A stretch of 64,000 nucleotides of DNA, taken from assembly GCA_016288815.1 (NCBI GenBank), contig JAEELF010000041.1:2421-66420 (forward strand), in the 5' to 3' direction. The notes under the pieces are model-generated. The model had not been told where the DNA came from. It saw only the letters and a program-made list of their open reading frames with translations, and did no database searches. Origin of the DNA: Ruminococcus sp. Its GTDB lineage: Bacteria > Bacillota > Clostridia > Oscillospirales > Ruminococcaceae. Within the stretch, counting starts at the first letter, position 1. Each line of letters starts with the position of its first letter. The position numbers and the translations under genes are program-made. Of this stretch, positions 421 through 18,342 are shown piece after piece.

Positions 421-2688
421 ATGGATTTTCAGGAACTTGTCGATTGCTACAGTGCCCCGACCTCGATAATGTCAGTCGAGAGAACGGCTGACGGCGGGTA
501 CGGTGAGATACGGATAGTTACAGGAAATGCAAGCTATCTCTACCCCTTGGAGCACCCCGCCCTGCCGGTGACTCCGCATACGACAGGTATCCCGGACGTC
601 TTCATGGCCACTCATAGATTTATCCCGGGTTCTCCCTACACGGACTACCTCCCGAAGGATACCGGCTTCGAGGATATCCTCTACCGCTCCGCAGTGAAGA
701 AGATACCCGTGCATACATACGTCCACCTCAACGAGCTGAACATCTGGTTCGACATTTTCAGTATGCCCATGTCCGTTGAGGACGGGGACACCTGCTACTG
801 CATATACACCACACGCCCCTGCGACCCGGAGGAGGTCGGCGTGAGCTCGAGCCAGTCCGGAACAGCCTCCGAGGACGTGCTGAAAGCCTGTATTAAGCTC
901 CACAGCTCCGACGATTTCAAGCATAACATCGCCGACGTCATCAAGGACATCAGACTGATATGCCGGGCGGAGGTCTGCTCCATCATGGTAATGGACGACG
1001 CCCCCGGAAAATACTCCGTACTGACAGCGAGCATTGACGAAAAAAGCAAGGTCAAGCGCGTGACCGAATTCTCCAACTTCTCTGACATCGCCGCGTCGTG
1101 GGTGGACATGATGAGCGGCAGCGACTGCATGGTGCTCAAGGACGAAAACGACATCGAGCACATTCGCAAGCTCAACCCCGCATGGTACCACACCTTCGGG
1201 GCAGCCGGCGTCAGGAGCTTTATCCTGTTCCCGCTGCGCCACAACGATGAGGTCATCGGCTTCGTCTGGGCGACCAACTTCGACACGACCAACACCATGC
1301 GGATCAAGGAGACGCTCGAGCTCACCGCCTACTTCATCTCCTCGCAGCTCGCAGGCTACAGAATGATGGAGCGCCTGAAGCAGATGAGCTACACGGACGT
1401 GCTCACCTCGCTTCCCAACCGCTTTGCCTGCGACGAGCTGATAGATGAGCTTATCCGACAGGACGAGCGTTTCACGGCTGTCATGATCGACATCAACTCC
1501 TTCAAGAGCGTAAACGACACTATGGGCTTCCAGACCGGCAGCAAGGTGCTAATCGAGATAGCACAGCGCTGGAGGGTCTTAGCGGAAGCTGGTATATCCG
1601 GTACGAAGGACTACATCGCGCGTATCAGCGGCGACGAGTTCGCCCTCGTGATACGCGATTACCCGACCGAGGACGATGTGCTGAAAACTATCCAGATGTA
1701 CGAAGCAGCCCTCAGCAGCCGCCTGACCGTAGACGACTGCGACTTATACATCACCGCCAGTTTCGGGTACGCTTCATATCCGACAGATTCAAAGCTCAAA
1801 GACCCGCTGCTGACCTATTCCACCGCCGCGATGTACGAGATCAAGCGCTCCGGCGGCAGCCGCCATATACTCAGGTTCACGCCTGATCTGCTGAAGATTG
1901 AACGCACGATAGAGGTCGAAAAGATCATACGCGAGGCGCTCGAAAACGAGACCATATACTTCAATCTCCAGCCGCAGTATGATATGCAGCACAAGCTCAG
2001 GGGCTTCGAGGCGCTCGCCCGCATGAAGGACGCGGACGGAAACAACGTCAGCCCCGCGGAGTTTATCCCGGTGGCTGAAAAGGTCGGGCTCATTGACAAG
2101 GTAGACGGCGCTGTATACAGAAAATCAGCAGTCTTCTTCGGCGAACTGCTCAGGAACTCCGGAGCCGATCTTGTGCTCAGTATCAACGTTTCCGTGCGCC
2201 ACCTGATGAAAAACGACTTCCTTGACGAGATCCGGGAGGTGCTCAGAGTCAGCGGAGTCCCCGCCGACAGGCTCGAGATAGAGATAACAGAGTCGATCAT
2301 GATAGACTCCGCCGAAAAGGCGCTGAGGTGTATCGACAGGATAAAGGAAATGGGCATAAAAATAGCCATTGACGATTTCGGAACTGGCTATTCAGCGCTG
2401 AGCTACCTCAACAGCTTCCCAGCCGACCTCCTGAAGGTGGACAAATCCTTCATCGACAAGATGAACTCCAGCGAGTCCTCGAAGCAGTACGTCGCCGCGA
2501 TAATCTCCATGGGACACATCATGGGCTTCGAGGTGGTATCGGAGGGAGTGGAGCTCCAGGAACAGATCGAGACGCTGCGCGAGATTGGCTGCGACTACAT
2601 TCAGGGCTTCATCTGGGGAAGACCTCTCATTCCGGAGGCAGCTGAGGCGCTCGTGTACGAGATATCCGTTCCCAGCAGCGGCTCATAA
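421..2688 (+). CDS. GAF-like + GGDEF + EAL c-di-GMP cyclase/phosphodiesterase
   Basis: D..T.LPNR, ISGDEF, FEALAR, EITES, DDFGTGYS, EGVE and QGF motifs; GGGAG RBS. Confidence 0.93.
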   Translation: MDFQELVDCYSAPTSIMSVERTADGGYGEIRIVTGNASYLYPLEHPALPVTPHTTGIPDVFMATHRFIPGSPYTDYLPKDTGFEDILYRSAVKKIPVHTYVHLNELNIWFDIFSMPMSVEDGDTCYCIYTTRPCDPEEVGVSSSQSGTASEDVLKACIKLHSSDDFKHNIADVIKDIRLICRAEVCSIMVMDDAPGKYSVLTASIDEKSKVKRVTEFSNFSDIAASWVDMMSGSDCMVLKDENDIEHIRKLNPAWYHTFGAAGVRSFILFPLRHNDEVIGFVWATNFDTTNTMRIKETLELTAYFISSQLAGYRMMERLKQMSYTDVLTSLPNRFACDELIDELIRQDERFTAVMIDINSFKSVNDTMGFQTGSKVLIEIAQRWRVLAEAGISGTKDYIARISGDEFALVIRDYPTEDDVLKTIQMYEAALSSRLTVDDCDLYITASFGYASYPTDSKLKDPLLTYSTAAMYEIKRSGGSRHILRFTPDLLKIERTIEVEKIIREALENETIYFNLQPQYDMQHKLRGFEALARMKDADGNNVSPAEFIPVAEKVGLIDKVDGAVYRKSAVFFGELLRNSGADLVLSINVSVRHLMKNDFLDEIREVLRVSGVPADRLEIEITESIMIDSAEKALRCIDRIKEMGIKIAIDDFGTGYSALSYLNSFPADLLKVDKSFIDKMNSSESSKQYVAAIISMGHIMGFEVVSEGVELQEQIETLREIGCDYIQGFIWGRPLIPEAAEALVYEISVPSSGS

Positions 2689-4349: not shown

Positions 4350-4415
4350 TCTGCAATGTACTTCCTTCAGTCATTTTTGCATTTCATTATACCACTCTCC
4401 GTCAATAAGTCAACG

Positions 4416-4440
4416 AAAAAGCTCCCCACGGGGAGCTTTT
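4416..4440. terminator. bidirectional terminator between convergent genes
   Basis: AAAAAGCTCCCC-AC-GGGGAGCTTTT. Confidence 0.85.
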
Positions 4441-4483
4441 CACTTGCTTATTCAAGAGTATTTTTCAACTAACGGATCTATCC

Positions 4484-5044
4484 TCACTCAAATTTTTTGC
4501 CGACGCTTCGTGCAGCAGCAACGCTCTCGCCGACCTTTCTGTAGCATTTTGCAGCGGTATCGTAAATGACAAGCCCCACCTTGCTGTAATCGACCTTTCC
4601 GTCGGTCAGGACGCTCTCGTCAGCCTTCAGACCAACTACCTCAGCAACGACTCTGGTCTCATTGAATTCCTCCTGAATGTCGATGACCCTGCACTCGATA
4701 GTCACAGGGAGCTGGTCGATGACGGGCGCGTTCACCTTGTCGGACTTCGTAACGGTAAACCCGCACTTCTCCAGCTTGTTCTCAATGTTGTTTCCGGACA
4801 CTACGCCCACATAATCACAGGCAGCGATCTGCTCTGCCGTAGCATACGCGACAGTGAACTCCCTGTTGAGCTTGATGTTATCAGTCGTGCGGTGCGACCC
4901 TGCAAGGCTAACTGATATCTGGCTCATGCCGACCTGTCCTCCCCACGCCGCGTTCATTGCATTGGGAGTTCCGTCAGCGTTGTAAGTGCCTATGATAAGC
5001 ACAGGGAGCGGGGCGAAAATGCCTTTTTCAAACGATAATTTCAA
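4484..5044 (-). CDS. flavin reductase (DIM6/NTAB) family protein
   Basis: P.PVLIIGTY...GTPNAMNAAWGG, REFTV, APVI..LPVTIECRV. Confidence 0.88.
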   Translation of the reverse strand: MKLSFEKGIFAPLPVLIIGTYNADGTPNAMNAAWGGQVGMSQISVSLAGSHRTTDNIKLNREFTVAYATAEQIAACDYVGVVSGNNIENKLEKCGFTVTKSDKVNAPVIDQLPVTIECRVIDIQEEFNETRVVAEVVGLKADESVLTDGKVDYSKVGLVIYDTAAKCYRKVGESVAAARSVGKKFE

Positions 5045-5097
5045 AGTTCAAGACCTCCATGATGTGTTTTTTGAGCTATTCAGTTCCACGCAATCTA

Positions 5098-6279
5098 TCA
5101 AACATCGACCCGGACCGCAGCAGCCTTGAGGGCGCGTTTCTGTTCGTACATGGAATTGTCAGCGCGCTTGAAAACATCATTGTAGCTGCTGTCTTCCGAA
5201 TTGTCATATACAGCAAGACCGCTCGCTACGATCACCTTGCCGTTTTGCTGATTTTGGCGGATAGTATCCCGGAAGGAGCTCATAAGCGCATCACGATCCG
5301 CATAATTGTCTCCTTTAAGGATAGTGACAAACTCATCTCCGCCGATACGGAACACCGGACTATGAGTGAACTGACGACATATCACCTTGCAGGCGCTCTT
5401 GATGTATTCATCGCCGGCTTCATGACCTAATGTATCATTGATAGTTTTAAGGTCGTTCACATCAAATACGGCCACGCCGTACTCTGTCAATTCACCGGTC
5501 TCGAGAGCAGTTTCCAGTTCAGCCAGCGCTTCGAGATACGCCAGCTTGTTTCTCACGCCGGTCAGACCGTCCCTGTACGCTTTCTGCCTTGCCTGATTGA
5601 TAGCCATATTCTGTTCAGCGTCTTTATCCTGGTAAATGAATGTGTGGATAAGACAGGTACCGAACAGGCAGCCCATCGAATAGAACGGCATCAGCGGGAA
5701 AAACATCTGAACGACAATAAAGAAGGTCATGATGATGCCGGAAATACTTATCGTTCTGTAGTGTGACCTGTTCATACCCTCTGAACGTACCGCCATGACG
5801 ATAGCGAATACAGACGTTACGAGGAAAAGCACGATCTGAAGGAACAACCCGATATATCTCGCAGGAAGCGGGATATATTCCTTGTCTTCACTGAATTTAA
5901 AAACGACAGGAATAAACAGATTGACCATCAGAACGACGATCTCAAAGGTAAACACAGTCCAGCCGCTCGACACAAGGAGCTTTCCGGCTTTGTCTATTTT
6001 TCCGGAAAAAGCAACTACGGCTCTTGTCCAGAGAAGCACGGATAAAGCCATAGAAGCGAAAAACAGGCAGGTATCCGCATATGTAAGTATCACCCATTTC
6101 TGCTCATAGAAGAATCCCCACATAATATCTGAAATGAAGAATACGATCAGAGAGAGCAGATACTGACGGTATTTCAGCCGCACATTATTGCTGCTCGTGT
6201 TCTCGACCTTTCTGAGAGCCACGATGTTGATGATACATAGCACTATCAGCGAAATGGCTCCGATGCTGGAATAATACAT
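5098..6279 (-). CDS. multi-TM membrane diguanylate cyclase
   Basis: About 7 hydrophobic segments then D.LTGVRN, FDVNDLK.IND..GH..GD, RIGGDEF. Confidence 0.92.
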   Translation of the reverse strand: MYYSSIGAISLIVLCIINIVALRKVENTSSNNVRLKYRQYLLSLIVFFISDIMWGFFYEQKWVILTYADTCLFFASMALSVLLWTRAVVAFSGKIDKAGKLLVSSGWTVFTFEIVVLMVNLFIPVVFKFSEDKEYIPLPARYIGLFLQIVLFLVTSVFAIVMAVRSEGMNRSHYRTISISGIIMTFFIVVQMFFPLMPFYSMGCLFGTCLIHTFIYQDKDAEQNMAINQARQKAYRDGLTGVRNKLAYLEALAELETALETGELTEYGVAVFDVNDLKTINDTLGHEAGDEYIKSACKVICRQFTHSPVFRIGGDEFVTILKGDNYADRDALMSSFRDTIRQNQQNGKVIVASGLAVYDNSEDSSYNDVFKRADNSMYEQKRALKAAAVRVDV

Positions 6280-6291
6280 AAACCGTCTCCT

Positions 6292-7944
6292 TTACTGTTT
6301 CTGTCTTTTTTTTCTGTCACGCTTGTTCTCATACATGAACTGATCCGCCCGCTTCATAACATCAGCCGCGCTGCTGTCTGATGACGGATCAAAAACAGCA
6401 AATCCCTTGGAGAGCTGCACCCGTTCCCACGGCTCAGCGGCAGCAGCATTTATCTCCGCTGCGGCAGAGTCAAAACGTTCCCCGATCACATCACGGTCAT
6501 TATAGTCCTCATGCTCCAGAATGACGGCGAATTCATCTCCGCCCATACGGAACACAGGGCTGTGCTTGAAGACCTCACAAATGGTATGAGCGGCTTTTTT
6601 CAGGTAAATGTCGCCCTTATCATGTCCATACCGGTCATTGATGAGCTTCAGGTCATCGCTGTCGAAAACTCCGACAGCAAACTCAATATCCTTTGCACCG
6701 CTATCGATCTCCTGCTGGATCTGGTCAAAGAGATTTGACAGCGCGCCCTTGTTTTTCACATTCGTCAGCGCATCGATAAACACCTGCCCGTTCAGGTCAT
6801 TGATATGCACCTTCACATTATCCGACAGCGTTCTGAACGACCTTGTCAGTCTGCCGATCTCATCTTCTCTGTCATAGGACAGAACGAAGTCATAATTGCC
6901 CTTATCCACCTGTTCCGCTGCCTTGGTGAGCTCTTCAAGCGGTCTGGTGATACGTCTTGTGTTGTACATCAGGAAAAGACTTGCTGCGATCAGGACGACA
7001 ACGGCGCCCATGATTATATTCAGGATCAGTCCCTTCCAGTCACCCTGTGTTTCCGAGACAGGAACTGTGACTGTCAGGCGCATACCATTGCTCAGCAAGC
7101 GCCAGACCGCCTCTTTTTCCTCTCCGAGATATGTATACCGGATCACATTGTTCCCGTCCGATTCGTCGAAAGGTATCTCAAATTCCGATTCCGAAGGAAG
7201 ATCTGCCACGTCAAGGCGCGGGTGATAGAAGAGCTTCCCGTCAGTGCCGCTCAGGAACGCATATCCGTTATCGTAAAGGCGGAGACTGTTAATTTCCTCT
7301 GCCATTGTGGAATAGTCCACTTCGATGCCGACAACGCCGATGAACCGTCCCTTCCAATAGACCGGCGCATCGTAGGAGATAACGCGCACATCAAGGTTGT
7401 CCGTGATATAGGGCGGGAGCCATATAGGCTTTTCCTCGTGCTTCGGGACTGTGAACCATACCAGCCTTGAGGTATCCTCAACATCATACTGCGTGATATC
7501 GGTGACCTCATGCTCCTCAAAGCCTTCGCCGGTCAGATCAGTGTACCAGAAGCCCTTTACCTCAGAGGAGACCGACGGGTCGATACGGTAATAATAGGTC
7601 AGAACGCCCTTGGTCTTGGAAGCCATTATCCCGAAGTATTCCCGGGCTCGCTCCATATGCTCTGCAAATTCCTCATCGGTGTCCACGTTTTCGAGGTCTT
7701 CCTCCGCATAGGACGTGACCTTCAGCACCGAGTTCTGGACGCTGTCGAAATAGTAATCAAGACTCCGCTCCCCTGACTCGCAGAGCATCTGCAGCAGCTG
7801 ATCCGATTTGTTGCTCTCGGTCTTGCGGATAAAAACAGCGCTGAGCAGCGTGGTGACTGCAAGAGCTGCAAGTATAACACAGAGCACGGTCATAGTGATC
7901 CGTGTCCTTAAAGAGTGTGGAAAAAACTTGGGATCCAGCTTCAT
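6292..7944 (-). CDS. Cache-HAMP diguanylate cyclase
   Basis: TM, extracellular Cache-like domain (WFTVP, W.PPY, ISY..PV), TM, HAMP (RDEIGRL..SF), RMGGDEF. Confidence 0.92.
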   Translation of the reverse strand: MKLDPKFFPHSLRTRITMTVLCVILAALAVTTLLSAVFIRKTESNKSDQLLQMLCESGERSLDYYFDSVQNSVLKVTSYAEEDLENVDTDEEFAEHMERAREYFGIMASKTKGVLTYYYRIDPSVSSEVKGFWYTDLTGEGFEEHEVTDITQYDVEDTSRLVWFTVPKHEEKPIWLPPYITDNLDVRVISYDAPVYWKGRFIGVVGIEVDYSTMAEEINSLRLYDNGYAFLSGTDGKLFYHPRLDVADLPSESEFEIPFDESDGNNVIRYTYLGEEKEAVWRLLSNGMRLTVTVPVSETQGDWKGLILNIIMGAVVVLIAASLFLMYNTRRITRPLEELTKAAEQVDKGNYDFVLSYDREDEIGRLTRSFRTLSDNVKVHINDLNGQVFIDALTNVKNKGALSNLFDQIQQEIDSGAKDIEFAVGVFDSDDLKLINDRYGHDKGDIYLKKAAHTICEVFKHSPVFRMGGDEFAVILEHEDYNDRDVIGERFDSAAAEINAAAAEPWERVQLSKGFAVFDPSSDSSAADVMKRADQFMYENKRDRKKRQKQ

Positions 7945-8197
7945 AGCAGCCTCCTGTTCTGTCAGAGTATTGGGTGAGTTGACCAGTATTCAGTTCATAC
8001 AGGATCTTTACAATCATTATACCATTTTCCGAGCGGATAATAAAGTGCCATGGTGGAAAAGTGTATAATTTTGTGTAATCGAACAAATTGACGCTTACGA
8101 ACTTGTTCAAAATCTCCAAAACCTCACAAGTGATGCCGCTGCGCAGAGGCAAGGATAATGGTAGATCTGAAAGCCTGATACCCACGGAAGTACAAAA

Positions 8198-8227
8198 AGA
8201 AAAGAGAGCAAAAATGCTCTCTTTTCT
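8198..8227 (-). terminator. terminator closing the pilus operon
   Basis: AGAAAAGAGAGCA-AAAA-TGCTCTCTTTTCT 13-bp stem, U-tract on - strand. Confidence 0.85.
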
Positions 8228-8285
8228 GTCATATACTATGATGTTTCAGCTGCTCACGAAAAGTGCCTGCCCGGTCTTAGTATTT

Positions 8286-11200
8286 TCAGACCGTTTCCCA
8301 CTTTCTTCTGCGGCGCTTGCAGTAAAGAAGCATACCGAGCGGTACGACCGGCGCGAGCATGAGTATCGCAGCAGTCATGAAAGACGACGCAACGCCTGTC
8401 GCAACCGTACCATTCAGCGTGTTCACTACGAGCAGATTCGTCGCAGAATCAACTGTGAATGTCTTACTTGTGCGCACTTCCGCATCTCCGCCGCTGAGCT
8501 TGAATGTGGTATCGTAGTCCTCATTTGCTTCGGTCACAGTTACCTGTGCGCCTACCGGCAGTGAGATGACCACTCTGTCGCAATGCTTCATCGTGAACGT
8601 TGCCGATGTGCCCATAGGAGTCTGCTTCGTTCCGTTCTTTGTCCACTCAAAAGCAGTTCCCTCTCCTGCGTTAGAGATATTGACAGTGAACGTGAACTCC
8701 TTGTGCCTGTTGCCAAAGGCGCCCTCCACTCGCTTGTCGATAGCGAGCGTTGTTTTGTCATTATCCTTTACATTCGATACGCTGAGAGTGAAGATATAGC
8801 TGTCATCAGTCTCTGTCAGCTCGCCCTGTCCGGAGGATATGAGCGTAGGTATACCGAGAGGCGAGATCCTGAAGATGATGTCCTCATCGAGCTTTTTATA
8901 ATTCAAGGGAGCCGCGGTCTCGGTGAGGAAGAATACCGCACCGTTTACGCCGGGATTAATCACTCTTCCGCTGTTTCCTCCGCAGACATCTACCACGCCG
9001 TCAACAGTTACCATATCCTCGAATCCTGTTATCGGATCCTTGTATTTGACATAACCGTTGATATTTGTGTTTGACTGCTTATAGAGCGCGAAGTGTGCAG
9101 AATCAAGCATGAGATCAGGATTTTCGCTGTCCATCTTCATGACCTTGAGATTGAAGGGCTTGTTATAAACGTCGATATACGCAGTGATACCGTTTGAGCC
9201 ATTCTTTCCCGAAGCCCAGCTGCTGTCGTAGCTTACACCTGTCATCTCGCTGCCCCACGGGGAGGTACCGTCAGCATAGAACAGTTCCGGCTGTCCGGCA
9301 TCGGTGACTCTGAATTTCAGCGTTTTTTGCAGTCCGACATAACCGTTAGGAGCGGAATTCTGTACAAGGGTGTACATCGCCCCGGGTTCAAAGCTGTACA
9401 GCATTTTTATCAGGCCATCAGAGTCAGAAGTGAACTCTCCGACAACAGCTCCTGTGCTGTCCTTGAGGGTGAAAACACCGCCGCTGAGCGGATCTGTGCT
9501 GTCCCACTTGAACAGTCTGAGCGCGATACCGTTTTTGCGGGTATTGCTTATCGTATCTGTACGCGAAGTACCCGTATCAGCTGCTGTGGCATAGGAAACA
9601 CAGTAATCAAAACGATAATACTTTGTCTCTTTTCCTGTTTCAGGATCCGTCTCAACGCGATCAGGATCACGGTTCGGTGTAGCTTCGGCTGTTGGGACAG
9701 TGTATAGACTGACTTCAGCCCCGCTGTTGAGCGGTATCACGTTTGTGTATCCGCTTACTGTACCGTCATCACTGACCGTAAGCTCACCGTCTGCTTCGAG
9801 CTCGACCTCACGGACCTCATATCCGGTGAAGTCAGTCCTCGGCGAACCGTCAGCATTAGGCTTCAGAGAAGTCCAGAAATAGTACGCTGATATGCTCGGT
9901 GACTCTATCTGCTTCACTGAGCCTTCAACGAGCTCTCCGTCTGCATAGACTGCAACATAGATCTTCTCGTGATAGGTCGTAAGCTCAAGGTCGCTCCACT
10001 TTTTGTTTACAGTCAGACCGTAGCCCTTTCTGTTCACGACCTCCATGTGCGGATCAACGCTCTGCATGATCCTTCCGACATTGAGCGGCTGTCCGTCATA
10101 TTCCTGATATGAGGCTATCTCTGAAGTTATATTATTCTCGATAAGCAAACCGTTCTTTCGTTCATATCCCATGATACCATATCCGGATTTTACGTCCTCA
10201 GTCACCTTGAAAACTGAGCCGTTGGGAACTCCGGGAACGCATATCGTGTAACCTGCCGGTATCTTTGAGATAGCTCCGAATCCGGAAGTCAGGAATGTGA
10301 TCTCCGTCATGTCGCTTATACCGTATGATTCTATAGGTGCAGAAATATGATTAAGATTGTATTGTATATAGACCTCGTTGTCCTCGTCAAAATCATTGCA
10401 GTATGCTATCAGCGCTTTGACTGCCTCGTGAGAATAATCAAGGTCAGTTGCAACGAATCTGCCCTTATCATGGTCGAAACGGCACATCTTGTTGTCCGGA
10501 GAAAGAACATAGTACTTCTGCATATTAGCGAGCGGGATATCCTTTGTAGCCACCGGCACTGAGGACAGATACAATCTGAAATCAAAGGTCGTCGGGTCAG
10601 TGAATATCTCTCTGCCGTCCTCGTCAATGAGCTTCTTGCGGATATACAGATCTCTTACGATGTTCTCATTCGTTACATTGTCAAAGGTTATTGTAGGTCT
10701 GTTTTCAGCTGTAACAAGATCTGACGAATAGCTTGCCAAATCATGTGTAGTCGAATCAGCAGGGACCTCAACACCATTTATCAGTACCTTTGAGTAGACC
10801 TGATCGTCTACCGCACACTCCACGAGTCTGTAGCTGATAGTTTTGTCCGGGAATGCGATCTCGGCATTCTTAGTCGGATTAAGGAAGTATACGTTCTCAT
10901 ATCCTTCGTCATCAGCAAATCCTGGCGGACGGTAGAGCTGAACGAATCTTACGCTCTGATTGGAATTCTGATATGTGACACAGGTATGTTCATCATCGTT
11001 CTTGAGGAGCTGCTCTTCACCCGGATTGCCTTCCTCATCAACAGGAAGTGTATAGTAGATCTGGAAAGGATATTCAAGGAATTCCTTGTCAAGATCTTGC
11101 TCACCCTCGCCGCTTATCGACTTGGAGACAACAACGTGTCCGGGCGTTACAGAAGCGAGATTGAAGCGCATATGGAGGTTTGATGCACCCGCACCGCGCT

Positions 11201-14200
11201 CCATGTAGAATATTCTCATCGTATGAGAAGAATAATCAGCGAAGATGTCCTCACAGCCGTAGGGCTTGCTTGGATCTGGCTGGAAGTATTTCAGGAGATA
11301 GTCGCTTATCTCTTGTTCAGACGGTTCATTACCATCATGCGCCGCCTTATAGCGGGCAGTGAAGTTGTCGATGAACACCTGTTTGAGAGTGGTCGTCTTG
11401 TGGTTAACGCTTACCTCGCCTGTACGGAAGTTTACGTTTCCTTCGAGCGCAGAATGGATACCGCCGAGATCGATGATAAGCTCTCCATCAACATAGAGCC
11501 AGAAGTCGTCGTCGCCGGTGAACTCGAATACCATATCGTGTCCCCATGCATCAAGTCCGCTGACTGTCTGCACGAACGACGCTTCGAGCTCCATGCCGTT
11601 GTAGTAGTTGGGATTGTTCCCGACATTGTACATCTCCTCGTACTTACGAGGGTCACTATCCGGGAGTGCACCACTGTCTTTCTCGCCTCTATGGATCTCT
11701 CCGTCTTCTCCCAAATAATAGGAGTAACCGTCAGGATCAGTGAGTGCCTTGTATGTGTTCTTATGCTTTGAGATTGGCTTTCCAACAATGCTGTCATACG
11801 GTAAAAACTGTCCGTGCCTTCTTGTCATACCGTTATTATTATCCGTAGTACCGAGCTCTCTGAAGACAGTGAAGTCCCTCATCGTGATCTCATTCCCCTG
11901 GCTGTCCGTTTCGGTATAAAGGGGATTTAGGCTGCCGTCGATATTATAGAACGACGCGAAATTCTGGCAGCTGTCGAATTCAAAGTATCCGCTTGAGTTG
12001 TATACGCTCTCGATGAAGAGATGGTTTACAATTGTAGTATTATTAAAGAGACCTGCAAGAGACTGTCCGTTTCTGGTAACGGTCGGGTATCCGTTCTTTC
12101 CGATGTCAGTAGAAAGGATACCGGCGTCAGTATACTGTACCGCAGAACCGGCATCAGTACCAAGGAAATTGCTCATAGCAGGACGGTTGGGGAAATCCTG
12201 CATCTTAACCGTGATACCATGCTCCATGTTATCAACAGTCTTGACCGTGTGCAGGCTGTCAGAGAGGTTGAGATCCTCTATAGTCGCGAAATAGAAATCG
12301 ACAGAATTCGCCAGTGCACAGGGAACGAGCCTTGTATTGTCCTCATTGGGAGTAAGTCCGACATAAGCATAGTAGGTGTTGTCCCAAGCGCCGATCTGCG
12401 AATAGAACTCACCATTGCGGCGTCCCTGCATATTGATACCGATAGTGCTGTCAGAAATCACCTGACTGCCCTGCATCTGGGGTGCAAGATACTTTTCCGA
12501 GTAAGGATTGTAGAGTTCATAGTAGTAGTTCGGCTGTTTAGTTACCTTGTCAAGATACTCAGTGAACTCCCATTCGAGGGAGCAGGTGCCGTCGGCGAGC
12601 CAGAGTATCTTACCGCCGCTCGCATAGCATGGGAAAAGTGTGCCGTCACAATCCACGGCGTACATATTGTAAACCTTGTTCACATCGTCCCAGATACGGA
12701 TATAAACGATGACTCTGTCCCCTGTCTTTACGTCAGATACACTGACTCTGTCCGCAGAGAATTTAATAAAATCATCATCTGAGATAGTCGCAAAATCGAC
12801 GAAGTACAGCCACGAGTCGTCTCCGGAAGATGTACCAGGCTCAAAATCATAGACCGTACCATTGCTGGTTTGCTCGTTAGTCAGACACACATTCTTCCCG
12901 CCGCTCGAAAGTCTTATCTTGCCGTCAGTACCGGTCGTGATCGTAAACTCAGTCGCATCATCTTCACTCGATGTGAGCGTGAGGACATCGCCGGACATCA
13001 CCAGATACTCCGTTCCGTTGCCGCTGTCGGTCGAGAGCTTGTAATTTCCGCTTTCTGTGGAGTGGAAGGTCCACATCGCGACCTCGCTTCCCTCATCGAC
13101 ATAAAGGATATTCGGAGTAGCAGAGGCAGTGTTTTTGCGTGTAATGAGCTGCACAAGAGAGTGGACTCTGTCATCTTCTCCCGCCATGAGCGCATAGCCG
13201 TGCGTTCCGGTCGTATAGTTCATCAGACCGTAGGTCTTGTTGTTGAGGTTGAGAGAGTCTGCTGCATATTCATCCAGTGACATCCAGACAGTACCCTTAT
13301 CTCCCTCAGTGTTAGTTAACTCATACCCAACCACAGGCATAGGATTATTCGCATCACTACCATTTCTTATCACCAAGAACGTTTTGCCGCCAACAGTTGC
13401 AGCAATCCTGAACTTTTCAGCAGACGAGTGCTTTTCTAACTCGAAAAGAGTTTTGTCATCGCTGGAGGCTGCAATTCTTAAACCAGCTCGGCTTGCACTT
13501 CCAAAAGAACCAGTATACATTTCAAGGTAATTCTTTGTACCGTCATCATTCTTAAAATAGATGTAGAACTGATTGTTGGCGGTGCCGCCCTCTTCAAAGT
13601 AAAGCTTCGCAGCATTACTTTTGTCACCCTGCTTGTTTGACACTATTCCTATTCTGTCTTCGGAGGAATTTTTGTCAGTGAACGACATCGTCTCATTCCT
13701 GAGATAAAACGGGCCGCCTCTTGACGGTGTACCGGCAGCGTTTGACTTATCACTTGCAACATAAGAAACATCAAAACCGTCGTCTCCGTAATCGGCAAGG
13801 ATTTGGAATAGATCAAATCCACTCTCGGGCTTCACGATCTGATAAACGCTGAATCCGGTCGCATAGAAGCTGATCTTGCCGTCCTCAGCGACAAAATCCG
13901 TTATCTGCTCGCGCTCGCCGTCGTCTCTGATGTGCCAGAGCTCTATCGGGTCGCTGCCGGAAATGTCCGGGTCGGATATCTCGACATATATCGGCTCACC
14001 GTCTGCCGGCTGGAATTCCTCATCGCCGTCGGTGATAGTTATGTCATACGCAGCAATGCCGGAGACCTCGTCTGATAGGTCCACGACTTCAGCCTCGGCG
14101 CCCTCGGGCATCATTCCCTCGAGAGTAACGACCTCGTCGGCGCCCTCGCCATTCGGGTAGACTTCGATACTTGTTAGGCTGAGAACGCTGTCCTCAGCTG

Positions 14201-14318
14201 CAATACTGTCCTCCGCCACCGCTGTGAATACGGGGCAAAGCGTACTGCTGACCGACGAGAACAACATCGCCGCAGCGCAGAATGCACTCAGTATGCGTTC
14301 TTTAAATGTCTTACTCAT
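8286..14318 (-). CDS. ~2010-aa sortase-sorted pilus tip adhesin with fibro-slime/PA14 domain and SpaA/prealbumin-like domains
   Basis: Start moved to ATG 14318 (AGGAGG RBS); signal peptide; FEFTGDDDFWLYVDGELIIDLGGIH fibro-slime motif; C-terminal TVATG + hydrophobic helix + KRRRRK. Confidence 0.85.
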   Translation of the reverse strand: MSKTFKERILSAFCAAAMLFSSVSSTLCPVFTAVAEDSIAAEDSVLSLTSIEVYPNGEGADEVVTLEGMMPEGAEAEVVDLSDEVSGIAAYDITITDGDEEFQPADGEPIYVEISDPDISGSDPIELWHIRDDGEREQITDFVAEDGKISFYATGFSVYQIVKPESGFDLFQILADYGDDGFDVSYVASDKSNAAGTPSRGGPFYLRNETMSFTDKNSSEDRIGIVSNKQGDKSNAAKLYFEEGGTANNQFYIYFKNDDGTKNYLEMYTGSFGSASRAGLRIAASSDDKTLFELEKHSSAEKFRIAATVGGKTFLVIRNGSDANNPMPVVGYELTNTEGDKGTVWMSLDEYAADSLNLNNKTYGLMNYTTGTHGYALMAGEDDRVHSLVQLITRKNTASATPNILYVDEGSEVAMWTFHSTESGNYKLSTDSGNGTEYLVMSGDVLTLTSSEDDATEFTITTGTDGKIRLSSGGKNVCLTNEQTSNGTVYDFEPGTSSGDDSWLYFVDFATISDDDFIKFSADRVSVSDVKTGDRVIVYIRIWDDVNKVYNMYAVDCDGTLFPCYASGGKILWLADGTCSLEWEFTEYLDKVTKQPNYYYELYNPYSEKYLAPQMQGSQVISDSTIGINMQGRRNGEFYSQIGAWDNTYYAYVGLTPNEDNTRLVPCALANSVDFYFATIEDLNLSDSLHTVKTVDNMEHGITVKMQDFPNRPAMSNFLGTDAGSAVQYTDAGILSTDIGKNGYPTVTRNGQSLAGLFNNTTIVNHLFIESVYNSSGYFEFDSCQNFASFYNIDGSLNPLYTETDSQGNEITMRDFTVFRELGTTDNNNGMTRRHGQFLPYDSIVGKPISKHKNTYKALTDPDGYSYYLGEDGEIHRGEKDSGALPDSDPRKYEEMYNVGNNPNYYNGMELEASFVQTVSGLDAWGHDMVFEFTGDDDFWLYVDGELIIDLGGIHSALEGNVNFRTGEVSVNHKTTTLKQVFIDNFTARYKAAHDGNEPSEQEISDYLLKYFQPDPSKPYGCEDIFADYSSHTMRIFYMERGAGASNLHMRFNLASVTPGHVVVSKSISGEGEQDLDKEFLEYPFQIYYTLPVDEEGNPGEEQLLKNDDEHTCVTYQNSNQSVRFVQLYRPPGFADDEGYENVYFLNPTKNAEIAFPDKTISYRLVECAVDDQVYSKVLINGVEVPADSTTHDLASYSSDLVTAENRPTITFDNVTNENIVRDLYIRKKLIDEDGREIFTDPTTFDFRLYLSSVPVATKDIPLANMQKYYVLSPDNKMCRFDHDKGRFVATDLDYSHEAVKALIAYCNDFDEDNEVYIQYNLNHISAPIESYGISDMTEITFLTSGFGAISKIPAGYTICVPGVPNGSVFKVTEDVKSGYGIMGYERKNGLLIENNITSEIASYQEYDGQPLNVGRIMQSVDPHMEVVNRKGYGLTVNKKWSDLELTTYHEKIYVAVYADGELVEGSVKQIESPSISAYYFWTSLKPNADGSPRTDFTGYEVREVELEADGELTVSDDGTVSGYTNVIPLNSGAEVSLYTVPTAEATPNRDPDRVETDPETGKETKYYRFDYCVSYATAADTGTSRTDTISNTRKNGIALRLFKWDSTDPLSGGVFTLKDSTGAVVGEFTSDSDGLIKMLYSFEPGAMYTLVQNSAPNGYVGLQKTLKFRVTDAGQPELFYADGTSPWGSEMTGVSYDSSWASGKNGSNGITAYIDVYNKPFNLKVMKMDSENPDLMLDSAHFALYKQSNTNINGYVKYKDPITGFEDMVTVDGVVDVCGGNSGRVINPGVNGAVFFLTETAAPLNYKKLDEDIIFRISPLGIPTLISSGQGELTETDDSYIFTLSVSNVKDNDKTTLAIDKRVEGAFGNRHKEFTFTVNISNAGEGTAFEWTKNGTKQTPMGTSATFTMKHCDRVVISLPVGAQVTVTEANEDYDTTFKLSGGDAEVRTSKTFTVDSATNLLVVNTLNGTVATGVASSFMTAAILMLAPVVPLGMLLYCKRRRRKWETV

Positions 14319-15051
14319 CGTCACCCTCCTCCTCATCGTTTTTACGCTTGAAAAGGAGCGCAGCAACAGCTGTCAGAGCAGCAGCCGCCATCGTGAAGCG
14401 CAGAGCACGCGCAGGGAAAGAATCCCCTGTCAGCACTCCGTCTATCAGCACGGTTATGAGGTTGGTCTCTGCGGGCTTGGTAGTCACAGGGGCAGTAGTA
14501 ACTGCCGGAAGAGTGGTCTGCACTGTAGTCACGATAGTTTCAGGAGCTGTTGTTGTAATTGTGGTGGAAGTCGTGGTTGTCACGACCTCATCCGGCAAAA
14601 CTTTATTCCTAAAATCGACCTGTTCTACCTTGTCATCACTGCCCTCAAGAGCAGCCGTTATCGCATATCTGAGACCGCCGTCATCATCATTCTCAACAAA
14701 AAGCGTGAGAGTATATACTCTGCGGTCGTAATCGACACCGGGATCGTCGCCCTCGACTTCATAGACCCTATATATGAATGTACCGGGTTCGCTGATAACG
14801 AGCCCGAAGCTGTCATAGCCCGAATCACTGATGATGAGCTCACCGGGAACCGGCTCCGGAGTAATCGAAGTCACAGCTTCTATAGCGATAGTATAAGCGC
14901 CGGTAATATTATCAGCATCAAAGAAGCAGCTGACAGGCACCTCCGCGGTAAATGATTCATATGCACTTGCAGATGTCCCGCCGGCGAATACAAAGACAAA
15001 AGAGAGAAGGCACACTGCAGCTGCCGATATCATCATCTTCAGTCTTTTCAT
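14311..15051 (-). CDS. minor/basal pilin (FctB-like, Spy0128-type domain)
   Basis: Signal peptide, EPGTFIYRVYE motif, T/P-rich stalk, VLTGD + TM + KRK tail. Confidence 0.8.
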   Translation of the reverse strand: MKRLKMMISAAAVCLLSFVFVFAGGTSASAYESFTAEVPVSCFFDADNITGAYTIAIEAVTSITPEPVPGELIISDSGYDSFGLVISEPGTFIYRVYEVEGDDPGVDYDRRVYTLTLFVENDDDGGLRYAITAALEGSDDKVEQVDFRNKVLPDEVVTTTTSTTITTTAPETIVTTVQTTLPAVTTAPVTTKPAETNLITVLIDGVLTGDSFPARALRFTMAAAALTAVAALLFKRKNDEEEGDDE

Positions 15052-15070
15052 ATGCCTTCCCTCCTTTCAT

Positions 15071-15769
15071 TTACTCGAGTATGTAGCAGAATACGACTAT
15101 CCTTGAAAGCAGATCACTGTCAGCACAGGTCGAGAGCCCGAGTATCCTCGCGTCCTTCGCGCCGGTGAACACAGTGGAATTATTCTCGATGTACTGCCGG
15201 ATAGCGTCCTGCTGCATATCAAATACTATTTTTTCGCGGGCGCCCACTCTCATTGAAGCGAACACCTCGATATCGTATACTTTTTCGGCATTTCTGCCGA
15301 CCATGAGCGTACCTGTGGTATGCTCGCTGAGATAGGAAGCATTCAGAAAGTCGTCGAGCGCTCCGAACATCTTCCCGTACTCCATATGATGACCATAGAC
15401 AATTGAAAAATCGTCAGTAAAGTCCGGTGAACTCCTGAAATCGAGGAAGATACTGCCGGATAAGGAGTACTCCCCGAGCGGATCCGTGTTCAGGTACTTG
15501 ATATTATCTCCGCCCTGCATCACCGGGTAGTCGATGTTAGTGCCGTCGATAGTGAGCCATGCCGTCATGTCACTGACTATAGGCGAATCCTTCTGCTTTG
15601 CCGGATCAGACGGATCCGGCTTGTACTGCAGAACGCTCCTTTCGAGCGTATGTCCGAAGATATAGTAGTTATCAAACAATTGCCAGAAGCCGATGAGCAT
15701 GATAAGTACAGACACCGCTATCAGAAGCCACCCATAAACATCATTCAGTGCTTTCCAGAATCTGAGCAC
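15071..15769 (-). CDS. srtB: class B (pilus) sortase
   Basis: N-terminal TM, WLTIDGTNIDYPVMQ, GSIFLD, YGHHM (His), LSTC (Cys), SRIVV (Arg). Confidence 0.92.
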   Translation of the reverse strand: MLRFWKALNDVYGWLLIAVSVLIMLIGFWQLFDNYYIFGHTLERSVLQYKPDPSDPAKQKDSPIVSDMTAWLTIDGTNIDYPVMQGGDNIKYLNTDPLGEYSLSGSIFLDFRSSPDFTDDFSIVYGHHMEYGKMFGALDDFLNASYLSEHTTGTLMVGRNAEKVYDIEVFASMRVGAREKIVFDMQQDAIRQYIENNSTVFTGAKDARILGLSTCADSDLLSRIVVFCYILE

Positions 15770-15775
15770 TTATGA

Positions 15776-17080
15776 TTATTCCTCGGAACGCTTCTTCTTG
15801 AGGCAGTATGTACCAACGCCGACACCCGCAGCACCAACTGCAAGGATACCGAGAGCCCCGCCTACAGCTGCGATAACACCTGTGGGGATAGTTCCTGCGC
15901 GGTCGTTCTTGAAGGTTATTGTCGTGTCGCTCTTGAGGTATGTATCAGATACAGAGTACTCGGAGATAGTCTCGGAACCGGACTCTGTAACGCCGACGCC
16001 GCTGATCGCTGTACCCTCGTCAGTCTTGTCCCCTGTCATGCTATCGCTTGTGGAAGAATACTCAACAGACGGGGTGTATCCCTCGGGAAGCTCAGTTATG
16101 GTGTAGCCCAGACCGCTCGGGATACCCTTGATCTCTACAGTATGACCGCTGCATAGATAGAAAGAATAGCCGTCTTTAAGCGCACCATATGTAAGCGAAT
16201 CCACAGCATTGGCTGCCATTTCGGTAGCGCTGTAGGATGTAACACTGTTCTCCTCGGGAGCAGCTTCAAGAGTGCCGACAACTGTGAACTCATCATTATC
16301 GCTGATCTGGAGTCCATCGGGGTTAGTTAACTGGATAGTTATCTTGAAGTGCTTGTTCTTGGAGCCCTGGTTACCTGTTACATTCTTTGCAACGACGAGA
16401 TTGTTTGTACCATACTGGTTCGTGAAGCCTGTAGACTTAACACCGGTCAGATAGGAGAACACAAATCCCTGTACGATCAGAGTGGGAGTTGCTCCACTGT
16501 TGGGATTATTGGTAACATATATATCGAGAATTCGCTTGTTATCTGTGTCAGGAGATACACCTGCAACGTTCTCGCTTGCAGTCTCGGTAATGATGTAGCG
16601 GTAGATACCAGGTTCTGTGAACGGAATCTGGCTGAGGTCCAGTGCCATTCCCTTGGTCACGAATTTCTCATCACTCGTATCATCGGTTGCAAAAGATATT
16701 GACTTTCCCGCAATAGCATTTGCCTGAGAAACAGCAGCATCGCCATCACTTGTCTCAAAGCTAACAGTCGCTGTGGTCGTATCAGAAGCTACAGTAACAT
16801 CGTCAGTATCCTTGAAGGAGATACCGGCTATACCGGGCACTACTTTGCCTGCCTCCTCTTCGCTGATGTCAGAAGCAGCTGCCGGAGCTACCGTGAAGGT
16901 GAAGCTCACATTCGGTACGTTTGCGTCATTCTCCATGACAAGATACTTCTCAAAGGTGAATGTGCTCTGGCTCGTAACTGTTTCCTCCGGCTCAGCTGAA
17001 GCACTCATGGGTACATAAGCGAGGCTCAGCGCTGCGAGACCGAGTGCAGCGATCGCTGCTGATATTCTTTTCTTTTTCAT
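15776..17080 (-). CDS. backbone pilin (FctA/T-antigen-like)
   Basis: Signal peptide, EPGIYRYIITE, K.VTGNQG...K.F, C-terminal TIPTGV + TM + KKKR. Confidence 0.85.
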   Translation of the reverse strand: MKKKRISAAIAALGLAALSLAYVPMSASAEPEETVTSQSTFTFEKYLVMENDANVPNVSFTFTVAPAAASDISEEEAGKVVPGIAGISFKDTDDVTVASDTTTATVSFETSDGDAAVSQANAIAGKSISFATDDTSDEKFVTKGMALDLSQIPFTEPGIYRYIITETASENVAGVSPDTDNKRILDIYVTNNPNSGATPTLIVQGFVFSYLTGVKSTGFTNQYGTNNLVVAKNVTGNQGSKNKHFKITIQLTNPDGLQISDNDEFTVVGTLEAAPEENSVTSYSATEMAANAVDSLTYGALKDGYSFYLCSGHTVEIKGIPSGLGYTITELPEGYTPSVEYSSTSDSMTGDKTDEGTAISGVGVTESGSETISEYSVSDTYLKSDTTITFKNDRAGTIPTGVIAAVGGALGILAVGAAGVGVGTYCLKKKRSEE

Positions 17081-17117
17081 ATTGAATTCCTCCTGAAATA
17101 ATTTTCATTTTTATGGT

Positions 17118-17684
17118 TTATATCCCGCGCATTCTCACAGTAAAGACCACAGCGCCTTCAACATCGTCGAGCGATATCCCGCCGTACGACCTGCTGTCGG
17201 AAATATCGCTCCGGTAGTCATTGAGAATGAATACACAGTTTTCCGGTACGTAATATGGATAGCTTATCGCCGAACCCTCCGGCGAAGTAGGGTAGACTAC
17301 ATTCTCGGAGATCCCGTAGTCGTTAACAACGATAAAGTCGTTGAATATCTCGACCTTGTCGCCGCCTCCGGCGATGACTCTTCCGAATCTAACCGCGCCA
17401 TCCTTTTTGTATACGACCATTGTCCCCTGCTTCAGCTCCGCAAGGCGGTAGGTGAGGCAAAAATCTCCGTCCCTGATCGACGGGTAAGCAATGTTCGTAT
17501 GGCAGATGAAAACTCCGGCAAAAAACGTGAACACCACCCACAGCACCAGCACGGTCGCTCCGACTTTGATGAAAAAGGCTATCGCATAGCTTTTGGCAGT
17601 ACGTTTTTTCCCTTTCTTTTTCTTCGGCTCAGCGGAGCGGACGTCATCTTCCGGCAGTTTTGAAGCTGTTTCTTCAGTAGTCAT
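17118..17684 (-). CDS. SipA/LepA-like signal-peptidase-fold pilus chaperone, probably non-catalytic
   Basis: Start ATG 17684 (AAGGAGG RBS); S26 fold motifs (LNDYRSDISDSRSYG) but catalytic S-M-x-P reads NIAYP and K-R reads GR. Confidence 0.85.
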   Translation of the reverse strand: MTTEETASKLPEDDVRSAEPKKKKGKKRTAKSYAIAFFIKVGATVLVLWVVFTFFAGVFICHTNIAYPSIRDGDFCLTYRLAELKQGTMVVYKKDGAVRFGRVIAGGGDKVEIFNDFIVVNDYGISENVVYPTSPEGSAISYPYYVPENCVFILNDYRSDISDSRSYGGISLDDVEGAVVFTVRMRGI

Positions 17685-17914
17685 CCGACCCCTCCTTTGA
17701 AACAAAAAAGCACCTCTCCGCACAGCCGCGGATACCCGCAAGCTCACCTTGAAGTGTGATCTCAGTGCACCCGGGCACGCTCATAGATGATCCGCCCGCC
17801 GAACAGGCATGACTATACTGAATAATACCAAATTTCGCAGAAACACGCCCCTTGCAGATCATTTTTGCCGCCCCCAGTTGTGTAAAATATACAATAAATG
17901 CACACATTATATAT

Positions 17915-17957
17915 AAGTGTACACTTGTATTATACTACTCACGGCGACAAAATTCAA
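17915..17957 (-). promoter_or_regulatory. sigmaA promoter of pilus operon with palindromic operator near +1
   Basis: TTGAAT(17957-17952)-17 nt-TATAAT(17934-17929); perfect 12-bp palindrome AAGTGTACACTT at 17915-17926. Confidence 0.75.
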
Positions 17958-18266: not shown

Positions 18267-18342
18267 TGGTGGAGCATAGGGGATTCGAACCCCTGACCCC
18301 CACACTGCCAGTGTGATGCGCTCCCAACTGCGCTAATGCCCC
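18267..18342 (-). tRNA. tRNA-Ala(GGC), CCA encoded
   Basis: GGGGCATTAGCGCAGTTGGGAGCGCATCACACTGGCAGTGTGGGGGTCAGGGGTTCGAATCCCCTATGCTCCACCA; 76 nt, anticodon loop CTGGCAG, T-loop TTCGAAT. Confidence 0.97.

Follow-up and report, generated by a model that had tools for sequence, protein, structure and literature searches.

A putative FCT-type sortase pilus operon with a fibro-slime/PA14-type adhesin in a cellulosomal rumen Ruminococcus

The DNA analysed here, a window of 64,000 nucleotides (nt) from Ruminococcus sp. (GenBank assembly GCA_016288815.1, contig JAEELF010000041.1), carries between positions 8286 and 17684 five consecutive minus-strand genes that resemble the FCT-type pilus loci of Streptococcus pyogenes. 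In order, these encode a SipA/LepA-like protein (188 amino acids (aa) from its ATG; 17118–17684), a backbone or shaft pilin of the FctA/T-antigen type (434 aa; 15776–17080), a pilus-type class B sortase (232 aa; 15071–15769), a small FctB-like basal pilin (246 aa; 14311–15051) and a putative tip adhesin (2010 aa from its ATG; 8286–14318). The open reading frames (ORFs), their order and the exact length of the adhesin are as given in a first-pass annotation of this DNA, as are the sorting motifs: the three secreted pilins end in TIPTG (backbone), GVLTGD (small pilin) and TVATG (adhesin), and after each motif come a hydrophobic stretch and then a basic tail. The SipA-like ORF extends upstream of the ATG to a GTG at 17747. 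Intergenic gaps measure 37, 6 and 19 nt, and the last 8 nt of the small pilin gene overlap the start of the adhesin gene; overlaps between these two genes are found in relatives too. A consensus scan predicts a promoter-like site, TTGAAT-17-TATAAT, on the minus strand at 17929–17957 (10/12 matches), ~245 nt 5' of the sipA-like ATG, and an intrinsic terminator-like hairpin with a 13-bp stem and a T run lies at 8198–8227 (minus strand), 59 nt past the adhesin stop. This tight packing between a promoter-like site and a terminator argues that the five genes form a single bounded unit, and we treat them as one predicted operon.

The SipA-like protein has a Lys-rich N-terminal tail, a single transmembrane (TM) helix and an S26 signal-peptidase fold (Peptidase_S26, 55.9 bits; TIGR02227, 79 bits), and its best match among solved structures in the PDB is S. 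pyogenes SipA (4n31, 2.4e-22), with true signal peptidases at 6e-3 or worse. The catalytic dyad of an active type I signal peptidase, Ser in SMxP and Lys in KR, is absent: the box-B Ser position is occupied by Ile65 (NIAYP; NDMSP in S. pyogenes SipA) and the box-D Lys position by Gly101 (FGRVIA; VGRIAA in S. pyogenes SipA), which bears out the initial description of GR in place of KR and of a missing S-M-x-P motif, with the nuance that five orthologues keep the Ser. While the Gly at the old Lys site is invariant across 8 orthologues, the old nucleophile site is Ile in the window, Ser (NSAYP) in five same-genus orthologues, Ser again in Lachnospiraceae bacterium NE2001 and Asn in R. bovis, a variability as expected of a site that is no longer catalytic. 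S. pyogenes SipA, which has Asp48 and Gly85 in place of the dyad, is without peptidase activity and is essential for polymerisation (PMC4049620); by analogy, the Ruminococcus protein is presumed to be a non-proteolytic helper of pilin polymerisation.

The backbone pilin begins with a signal peptide and ends in RAGTIPTGV, a TM segment and KKKR. It matches DUF7601 (59.8 bits) and, in the PDB, the T-antigens 8f70 (1.7e-17) and 6bbw as well as Spy0128 (3b2m, 3.5e-11). A HMMER alignment onto Spy0128 places two putative isopeptide triads, K45-E166-N221 and K232-E331-N392, and aligns K215 with the Spy0128 Lys that lies seven residues before an isopeptide Asn. Kang and colleagues are reported to have assigned the Spy0128 isopeptide residues in 2007 as K36-E117-N168 and K179-E258-N303, and in that numbering the Lys aligned with K215 is the inter-subunit Lys161. 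Both triads and K215 are conserved in 8 orthologues, making K215 the candidate inter-subunit lysine of the shaft, and the features by which an FctA/T-antigen backbone is recognised, two immunoglobulin (Ig)-like domains, Lys-Glu-Asn triads and an omega-loop Lys, are all present in the sequence.

The operon sortase (PF04203, 42 bits) carries an N-terminal TM helix and the catalytic residues His127/128, Cys215 and Arg223, with the motifs YGHHM, LSTC and (S/T)RxxVF conserved in orthologues. Its best PDB match is the pilin polymerase Spy0129 (3psq, 1.1e-30), followed by 4y4q, both ahead of NPQTN-type sortase B, consistent with a class B pilin polymerase with a His-Cys-Arg triad. One other sortase is encoded in the genome, outside the window (contig C65, 4767–6596); it is also class-B-like and has a long N-terminal extension of ~330 residues, probably cytoplasmic, with REVISHAAEAP repeats and a poly-Lys run before the TM helix. 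Among the weaker sortase matches that relatives give, ORFs of 450–620 aa turn up repeatedly. The other predicted sortase substrates of the genome carry SPKTG or APKTG, among them a 325-aa protein beside the scaffoldin cluster, and the difference between these motifs and the IPTG, VLTG and VATG of the pilus proteins argues for handling of the latter by the operon's own enzyme. The TGDSFPA of the basal pilin resembles the TGDSVPA of one SPKTG protein, a likeness that makes it possible for this subunit to be finally anchored to the wall by the housekeeping sortase, as FctB is by SrtA.

The small pilin consists of one FctA-type Ig domain, a Thr-rich stalk of ~45 residues, and VLTGDSFPA followed by a TM segment and a charged tail. 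Matches to FctA (PF12892, 35 bits) and strep_pil_rpt (TIGR03786, 40.8 bits) are both above cut-off, and the solved structures recovered are T-antigen N-domains and FctB (3klq/8k6t), the latter at ~7e-5 over the whole folded domain. A conserved Lys141 lines up with the GDEEK-loop Lys of FctB, and the sorting signal, (V/I)(L/I)TGD(S/R)FPA, is kept in six same-genus loci. Cys42 in the first beta-strand is likewise invariant in these six loci (VPVSC, IPVTC, IPVDC etc.); it is the sole Cys of the mature window protein and, by eye, takes the place of the isopeptide Lys of the backbone N-domain (FEKYL). For four of the proteins, then, the best or near-best solved structures are SipA, the T-antigens/Spy0128, Spy0129 and FctB, and the reactive residues are conserved; the structural side of the first-pass reading, an FCT-type pilus with the sipA-fctA-sortase-fctB core of S. 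pyogenes, is supported.

The adhesin is predicted to comprise, in order, a signal peptide, an N-terminal beta-sandwich, about two beta-trefoil-like domains (~184–505), a conserved beta domain (~519–685), a fibro-slime/PA14 domain (~695–1055, with GDDDFWLYVDG at 935), a CnaB/SpaA/DUF7601 stalk (~1100–1965) and the C-terminal sorting sequence NGTVATGV. Fibro_Slime (TIGR02148) passes its cut-off of 45 with 46.7 bits, and PA14 (PF07691; cut-off 24) reaches 26.7 bits when a fragment is scanned but 22.2 bits for the protein as a whole; a tip of fibro-slime/PA14 type had been proposed at the outset, and to it the beta-trefoil-like head domains are now added. SpaA matches the stalk at 53–57 bits and two DUF7601 domains at 58–60 bits; Cna_B is weak. 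The last domain is a DUF7601, the family of the backbone C-domain, a kinship visible via Pfam, as comparing the adhesin C-terminus with the backbone by pairwise BLASTP returns only E 0.003. Conservation is greatest over ~519–1055 (36–81 homologues), a block that includes GDDDFWLYVDGELxIDLGG. Family scans of the adhesin find no thioester, vWA, dockerin or cohesin domain and no recognised carbohydrate-binding module (CBM) family. A thioester at FDSCQNF in the fibro-slime domain was considered and dropped, as the Cys is conserved in fewer than 90% of 36 homologues, the adjoining Ser and Gln being invariant.

A sequence search of the PDB returns no match to the adhesin, and its structure was therefore modelled with AlphaFold2 (AF2) as two halves from a 37-sequence alignment, with Foldseek run on the models. 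Residues 1101–1985 form an all-beta stalk (mean predicted confidence, pLDDT, 85.7) whose top matches are a T-antigen, PitA, SpaC, Bacillus anthracis TIE and Cpa, with PitB also among the best. Residues 36–1150 are modelled with medium confidence (pLDDT 78.7), and the top matches are beta-trefoil proteins at E 4e-6 and weaker: fascin, clostridial neurotoxin-complex receptor-binding/NTNH-type modules, Kunitz/WSCP trefoils and a mushroom lectin, a likeness at the level of the fold only. Taken from the domain families, and for carbohydrate binding from the family annotation and the Fibrobacter succinogenes protein FSU_2502, the most likely target of the head is a glycan, carried by plant particles or by other cells. 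That R. bovis, a starch degrader, and an isolate of the Lachnospiraceae have close homologues speaks against cellulose as such as the ligand.

The host genome (2.33 Mb; GC 54.5%) holds ~66 dockerin matches above cut-off and a scaffoldin cluster in which a single 1827-aa ORF has at least seven cohesins, and the named relatives are R. flavefaciens and a Ruminococcus from buffalo omasum; the host is thus a cellulosomal rumen bacterium, as first described. Profile scans find no dockerin or cohesin family in any of the five pilus proteins, so the fibre appears to be independent of the cellulosome. Sortase orthologues of 52–69% identity occur in 5 of 24 sampled congeners, with the same gene order in all five, and named carriers of the locus are an R. 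flavefaciens metagenome-assembled genome, Ruminococcus sp. RGIG7544 (buffalo omasum) and R. flavefaciens ATCC 19208. The five-gene module is identical in order in R. bovis CP039381 and in Lachnospiraceae NE2001, where the adhesin has full-length homologues of 44–46% identity; the gene for the adhesin is last, at the 3' end, in the window and in every relative inspected, in agreement with the first-pass annotation. Within the genus, 37 of 162 species have the adhesin core, as do 27 of 93 high-quality genomes; of 399 other scored genomes, drawn evenly from the class, only 1 has it. The protein database holds >1159 homologues, mostly unnamed metagenomic sequences. The genes that flank the operon vary between genomes. 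This patchy distribution of a shared module with differing flanks indicates, at the sequence level, an accessory module common to herbivore-gut lineages. The GC content of the operon, 49.1% (~49% over 4400–17684) against a genome mean of 54.7%, falls at the 7th percentile of 9.4-kb segments of the genome, and composition lends weak support to a recent transfer.

Directly upstream of the operon lies a minus-strand tRNA-Ala(GGC) gene (18267–18342) with its own perfect -35/-10 promoter (18382–18354) and terminator (18148–18125), and the operon's promoter-like site sits downstream of that terminator. An integrative island at this tRNA was considered and rejected: the end of the tRNA is not repeated, either directly or in att-like form, and no integrase is present. 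Rfam searches of the leader, at gathering level and at E<=5, return the tRNA-Ala and noise only, with no riboswitch for cyclic di-GMP (c-di-GMP) or other known RNA. Downstream of the operon, the window has c-di-GMP genes that encode dCache-HAMP-GGDEF (421–2688, plus strand), GGDEF (5098–6279, minus strand) and GAF-GGDEF-EAL (6292–7944, minus strand) proteins, and such genes lie just downstream of the operon in three of four same-genus loci with a visible downstream flank, with differing architectures. Those of relatives include L011 13964–19689 and L013 3533–5224; genome G015 has a periplasmic-binding-domain-EAL protein and a 7TM (seven-TM)-GGDEF-EAL protein near the operon, and G010 a GGDEF-EAL protein plus two more GGDEF matches on the same contig. 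With 20–38 GGDEF genes per genome, or about one per 80–140 kb, the proximity may have a function, or it may come from GGDEF genes grouping with one another. CotH kinase-like genes adjoin the operon in two relatives, downstream in G010 (L013 5459–7072) and upstream in ATCC 19208 (L014 1336–3837). Ahead of the operon in R. bovis CP039381 come another sortase gene, a GDSL lipase and a transposase of the rve family (L016 134–3113), which hints at a mobile context there.

On these sequence comparisons and by analogy with streptococci, we consider it highly probable that one operon here encodes a pilus of three components (tip, shaft and base), assembled by sortase and of the streptococcal FCT/pneumococcal PI-2 type. 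Gene content, homology to FCT, and the conservation of reactive residues and of the operon were computed; polymerisation, the position of the tip, the role of SipA and the ligand enter through an assembly scheme drawn by homology with S. pyogenes. In this scheme, Sec would export the three pilins, and a C-terminal TM anchor would keep each of them in the membrane. The class B sortase would cut the xxTG signal of the 2010-aa adhesin and link its Thr to Lys215 of a first backbone pilin, after which further backbone subunits would be added by the same enzyme, Thr400 of one to Lys215 of the next, with the SipA-like protein, itself catalytically dead, taking part in subunit addition as an obligatory helper that cleaves nothing. 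The end of the fibre would then be joined to Lys141 of the small basal pilin, whose Thr-rich stalk would span the wall and be linked to peptidoglycan, and the finished fibre would display its lectin-like head, beta-trefoil-like and fibro-slime/PA14 domains together, far from the cell.

Several observations weigh against parts of this interpretation. The hidden Markov model searches that had been proposed as a check put TIGR02148 on the adhesin and FctA on the small pilin above cut-off, but the class B family TIGR03064, although the best NCBIfam match of the sortase, reaches 132 bits and stays below its equivalog cut-off of 153.75. The strep_pil_rpt match on the backbone pilin is likewise below cut-off (26.4 versus 31.85 bits), and the stalk of the basal pilin is Thr-rich with few prolines, where FctB has a polyproline tail. 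Family scans give a tip without a thioester domain, unlike Cpa; its PA14 match spans just ~30 profile positions, and RicinB is sub-threshold (residues 416–488, 18.4 bits), although the position of the latter agrees with the beta-trefoil Foldseek matches of the head. The assignment as a lectin is one of fold with modest scores (E 4e-6; TM-score 0.1–0.2 for a multidomain query). Finally, the adhesin of R. flavefaciens ATCC 19208 is split by a frame change, so that the tip is either dispensable in culture or mis-sequenced there; the two halves in this genome (NZ_JAEF01000007; L014 8208–10013 and 10016–14032) encode 601 and 1338 aa in different frames, and the other four genes are intact.

A reading in which no fibre is built at all has to be weighed against assembly into a pilus. 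Here the three xxTG proteins would be anchored singly to the wall as monomers by a dedicated class B sortase, in the manner of iron-uptake SrtB or of the SrtB substrates of Clostridioides difficile, and the large protein would be a wall adhesin. That the operon sortase is class B by family fits this picture, as does the class-B-like nature of the genome's other sortase, which evidently serves general anchoring of SPKTG proteins; yet the nearest structures of the operon enzyme are the pilus polymerases rather than NPQTN-type SrtB, the backbone Lys aligned with Spy0128 Lys161 is kept in all orthologues, and the locus includes both an FctB-like basal pilin and a SipA-type helper, helpers of this type being known from pilus loci only. 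We regard anchoring as monomers as improbable. The part given to SipA could also be misjudged, if the protein were an active, pilin-dedicated signal peptidase that uses alternative residues for leader cleavage and does not help polymerisation. The S26 fold is clearly kept, the five NSAYP orthologues place a Ser at the nucleophile position, and some streptococcal SipA homologues retain an intact dyad (PMC4049620). Against this, the general-base Lys is Gly in 8/8 orthologues, the nucleophile position is free to vary among Ile, Asn and Ser (Asp in S. pyogenes), which is unexpected for a catalytic residue, and in S. pyogenes, where SipA lacks peptidase activity, D61A/S mutants still support polymerisation (PMC4049620). 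An active peptidase is therefore very improbable, and a helper of polymerisation remains our preferred role for SipA.

The nature of the ligand leaves more room. A real pilus, fully compatible with the assembly scheme above, might carry a tip that binds a protein or cell-surface target and not plant polysaccharide, for example on rumen microbes (in co-aggregation or biofilm), host epithelium or mucus, with the fibro-slime/PA14 domain and trefoils then serving as general binding scaffolds. The homologues at 44–46% identity belong to R. bovis, which is amylolytic and non-cellulolytic, and to Lachnospiraceae NE2001; the adhesin is an accessory gene, present in only 37 of 162 species of the genus; no recognised CBM family is matched; and the known tips of FCT-type and related pili (Cpa, PitA, SpaC) bind host molecules. 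PA14 domains and ricin-type trefoils are mostly glycan binders, however, and the family is concentrated in fibre-associated rumen lineages, as shown by the genus count set against 1/399 other genomes of the class. We judge a non-glycan target possible but on the unlikely side, and retain a glycan-binding head as the preferred reading.

Adhesion of rumen ruminococci to fibre has been credited to cellulosomes, CBM37 enzymes, the glycocalyx and type IV pili (PMC8092306), and our literature searches found no description of sortase-built pili in ruminococci. The system is nevertheless less exotic than the first-pass annotation implied, since a pilus made with SipA and a class B sortase has already been shown in Clostridium perfringens (PMC8088525) and the adhesin family is large in the databases. 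The pilus machinery is of the known FCT/PI-2 kind, from which it departs in three ways: a tip that has a new head and no thioester domain, the adhesin gene in last place and the Thr-rich basal tail. A bolder proposal, which we put forward as doubtful, is that these loci define a herbivore-gut-specific class of FCT-like pilus with a 2000-residue lectin tip, a third route of attachment to plant particles or partner cells beside the cellulosome and type IV pili, exchanged horizontally among Ruminococcus, R. bovis-type and Lachnospiraceae lineages and switched by c-di-GMP; the last element is suggested because GGDEF/EAL genes lie just downstream in three of the four same-genus loci with a visible flank. 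If the pilus reading is correct, about a quarter of Ruminococcus species would have, in a covalent pilus whose lectin-like tip is long, an added attachment device that the others lack, and this could help to explain why strains differ in how they colonise feed particles or co-aggregate. The pilus would also widen the known range of SipA and class B sortase assembly beyond pathogens, and the diverged SipA set, in which the former nucleophile varies and the former Lys is invariably Gly, would be useful for finding out what SipA does.

The closest known system is the S. pyogenes FCT region, e.g., FCT-2, with cpa, sipA/lepA, fctA/tee (Spy0128), srtC1 (Spy0129) and fctB. Both loci encode a dead SipA-type signal peptidase with Gly at the site of the catalytic Lys, a two-domain T-antigen-type backbone that has an omega-loop Lys in addition to its Lys-Glu-Asn isopeptide triads, a pilin polymerase of class B, and a basal pilin in which one domain is followed by an extended C-terminal stalk. 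Sorting motifs of the (I/V)PTG type are also common to the two. They differ in that the adhesin gene is last in Ruminococcus and first in FCT, where cpa stands upstream of sipA; in a backbone that is ~100 residues longer in Ruminococcus, with insertions; in a basal stalk that is Thr-rich and not polyproline; in that no RofA/Nra/MsmR-type regulator adjoins the Ruminococcus operon; and in the host, here a non-pathogenic rumen fibre degrader. Cpa is a protein of roughly 700–750 aa, whereas the Ruminococcus tip of 2010 aa has a beta-trefoil plus fibro-slime/PA14 head in place of a thioester domain, and only its stalk resembles Cpa/PitA.

Among Clostridia, the adhesive pilus of C. perfringens VR-10B (cnaA, fimA, fimB, plus the genes of a signal peptidase and of a class B sortase), for which pili have been shown experimentally (PMC8088525), is alike by description, as an operon in which three pilins go together with a homologue of signal peptidases and a class B sortase; its tip is the collagen-binding CnaA, its gene order is different and it serves adhesion to host tissue in necrotic enteritis (PMC8088525). 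The PI-2 islet of pneumococcus and Streptococcus oralis (pitA, sipA, pitB, srtG1, srtG2), which is SipA-dependent, has in common SipA and a class-B-like sortase, 4y4q being the second-best match of the Ruminococcus enzyme. It differs in that it has two sortases and lacks a basal pilin, and in that its tip is small and encoded ahead of sipA. With the fibro-slime proteins of F. succinogenes, e.g., the 180-kDa cellulose-binding FSU_2502, the adhesin has the TIGR02148 core and the context of rumen fibre adhesion in common, a likeness over ~45 profile residues; those proteins belong to the outer membrane or to vesicles of a Gram-negative organism, whereas in Ruminococcus the same domain would form part of the head of a sortase-linked pilin.

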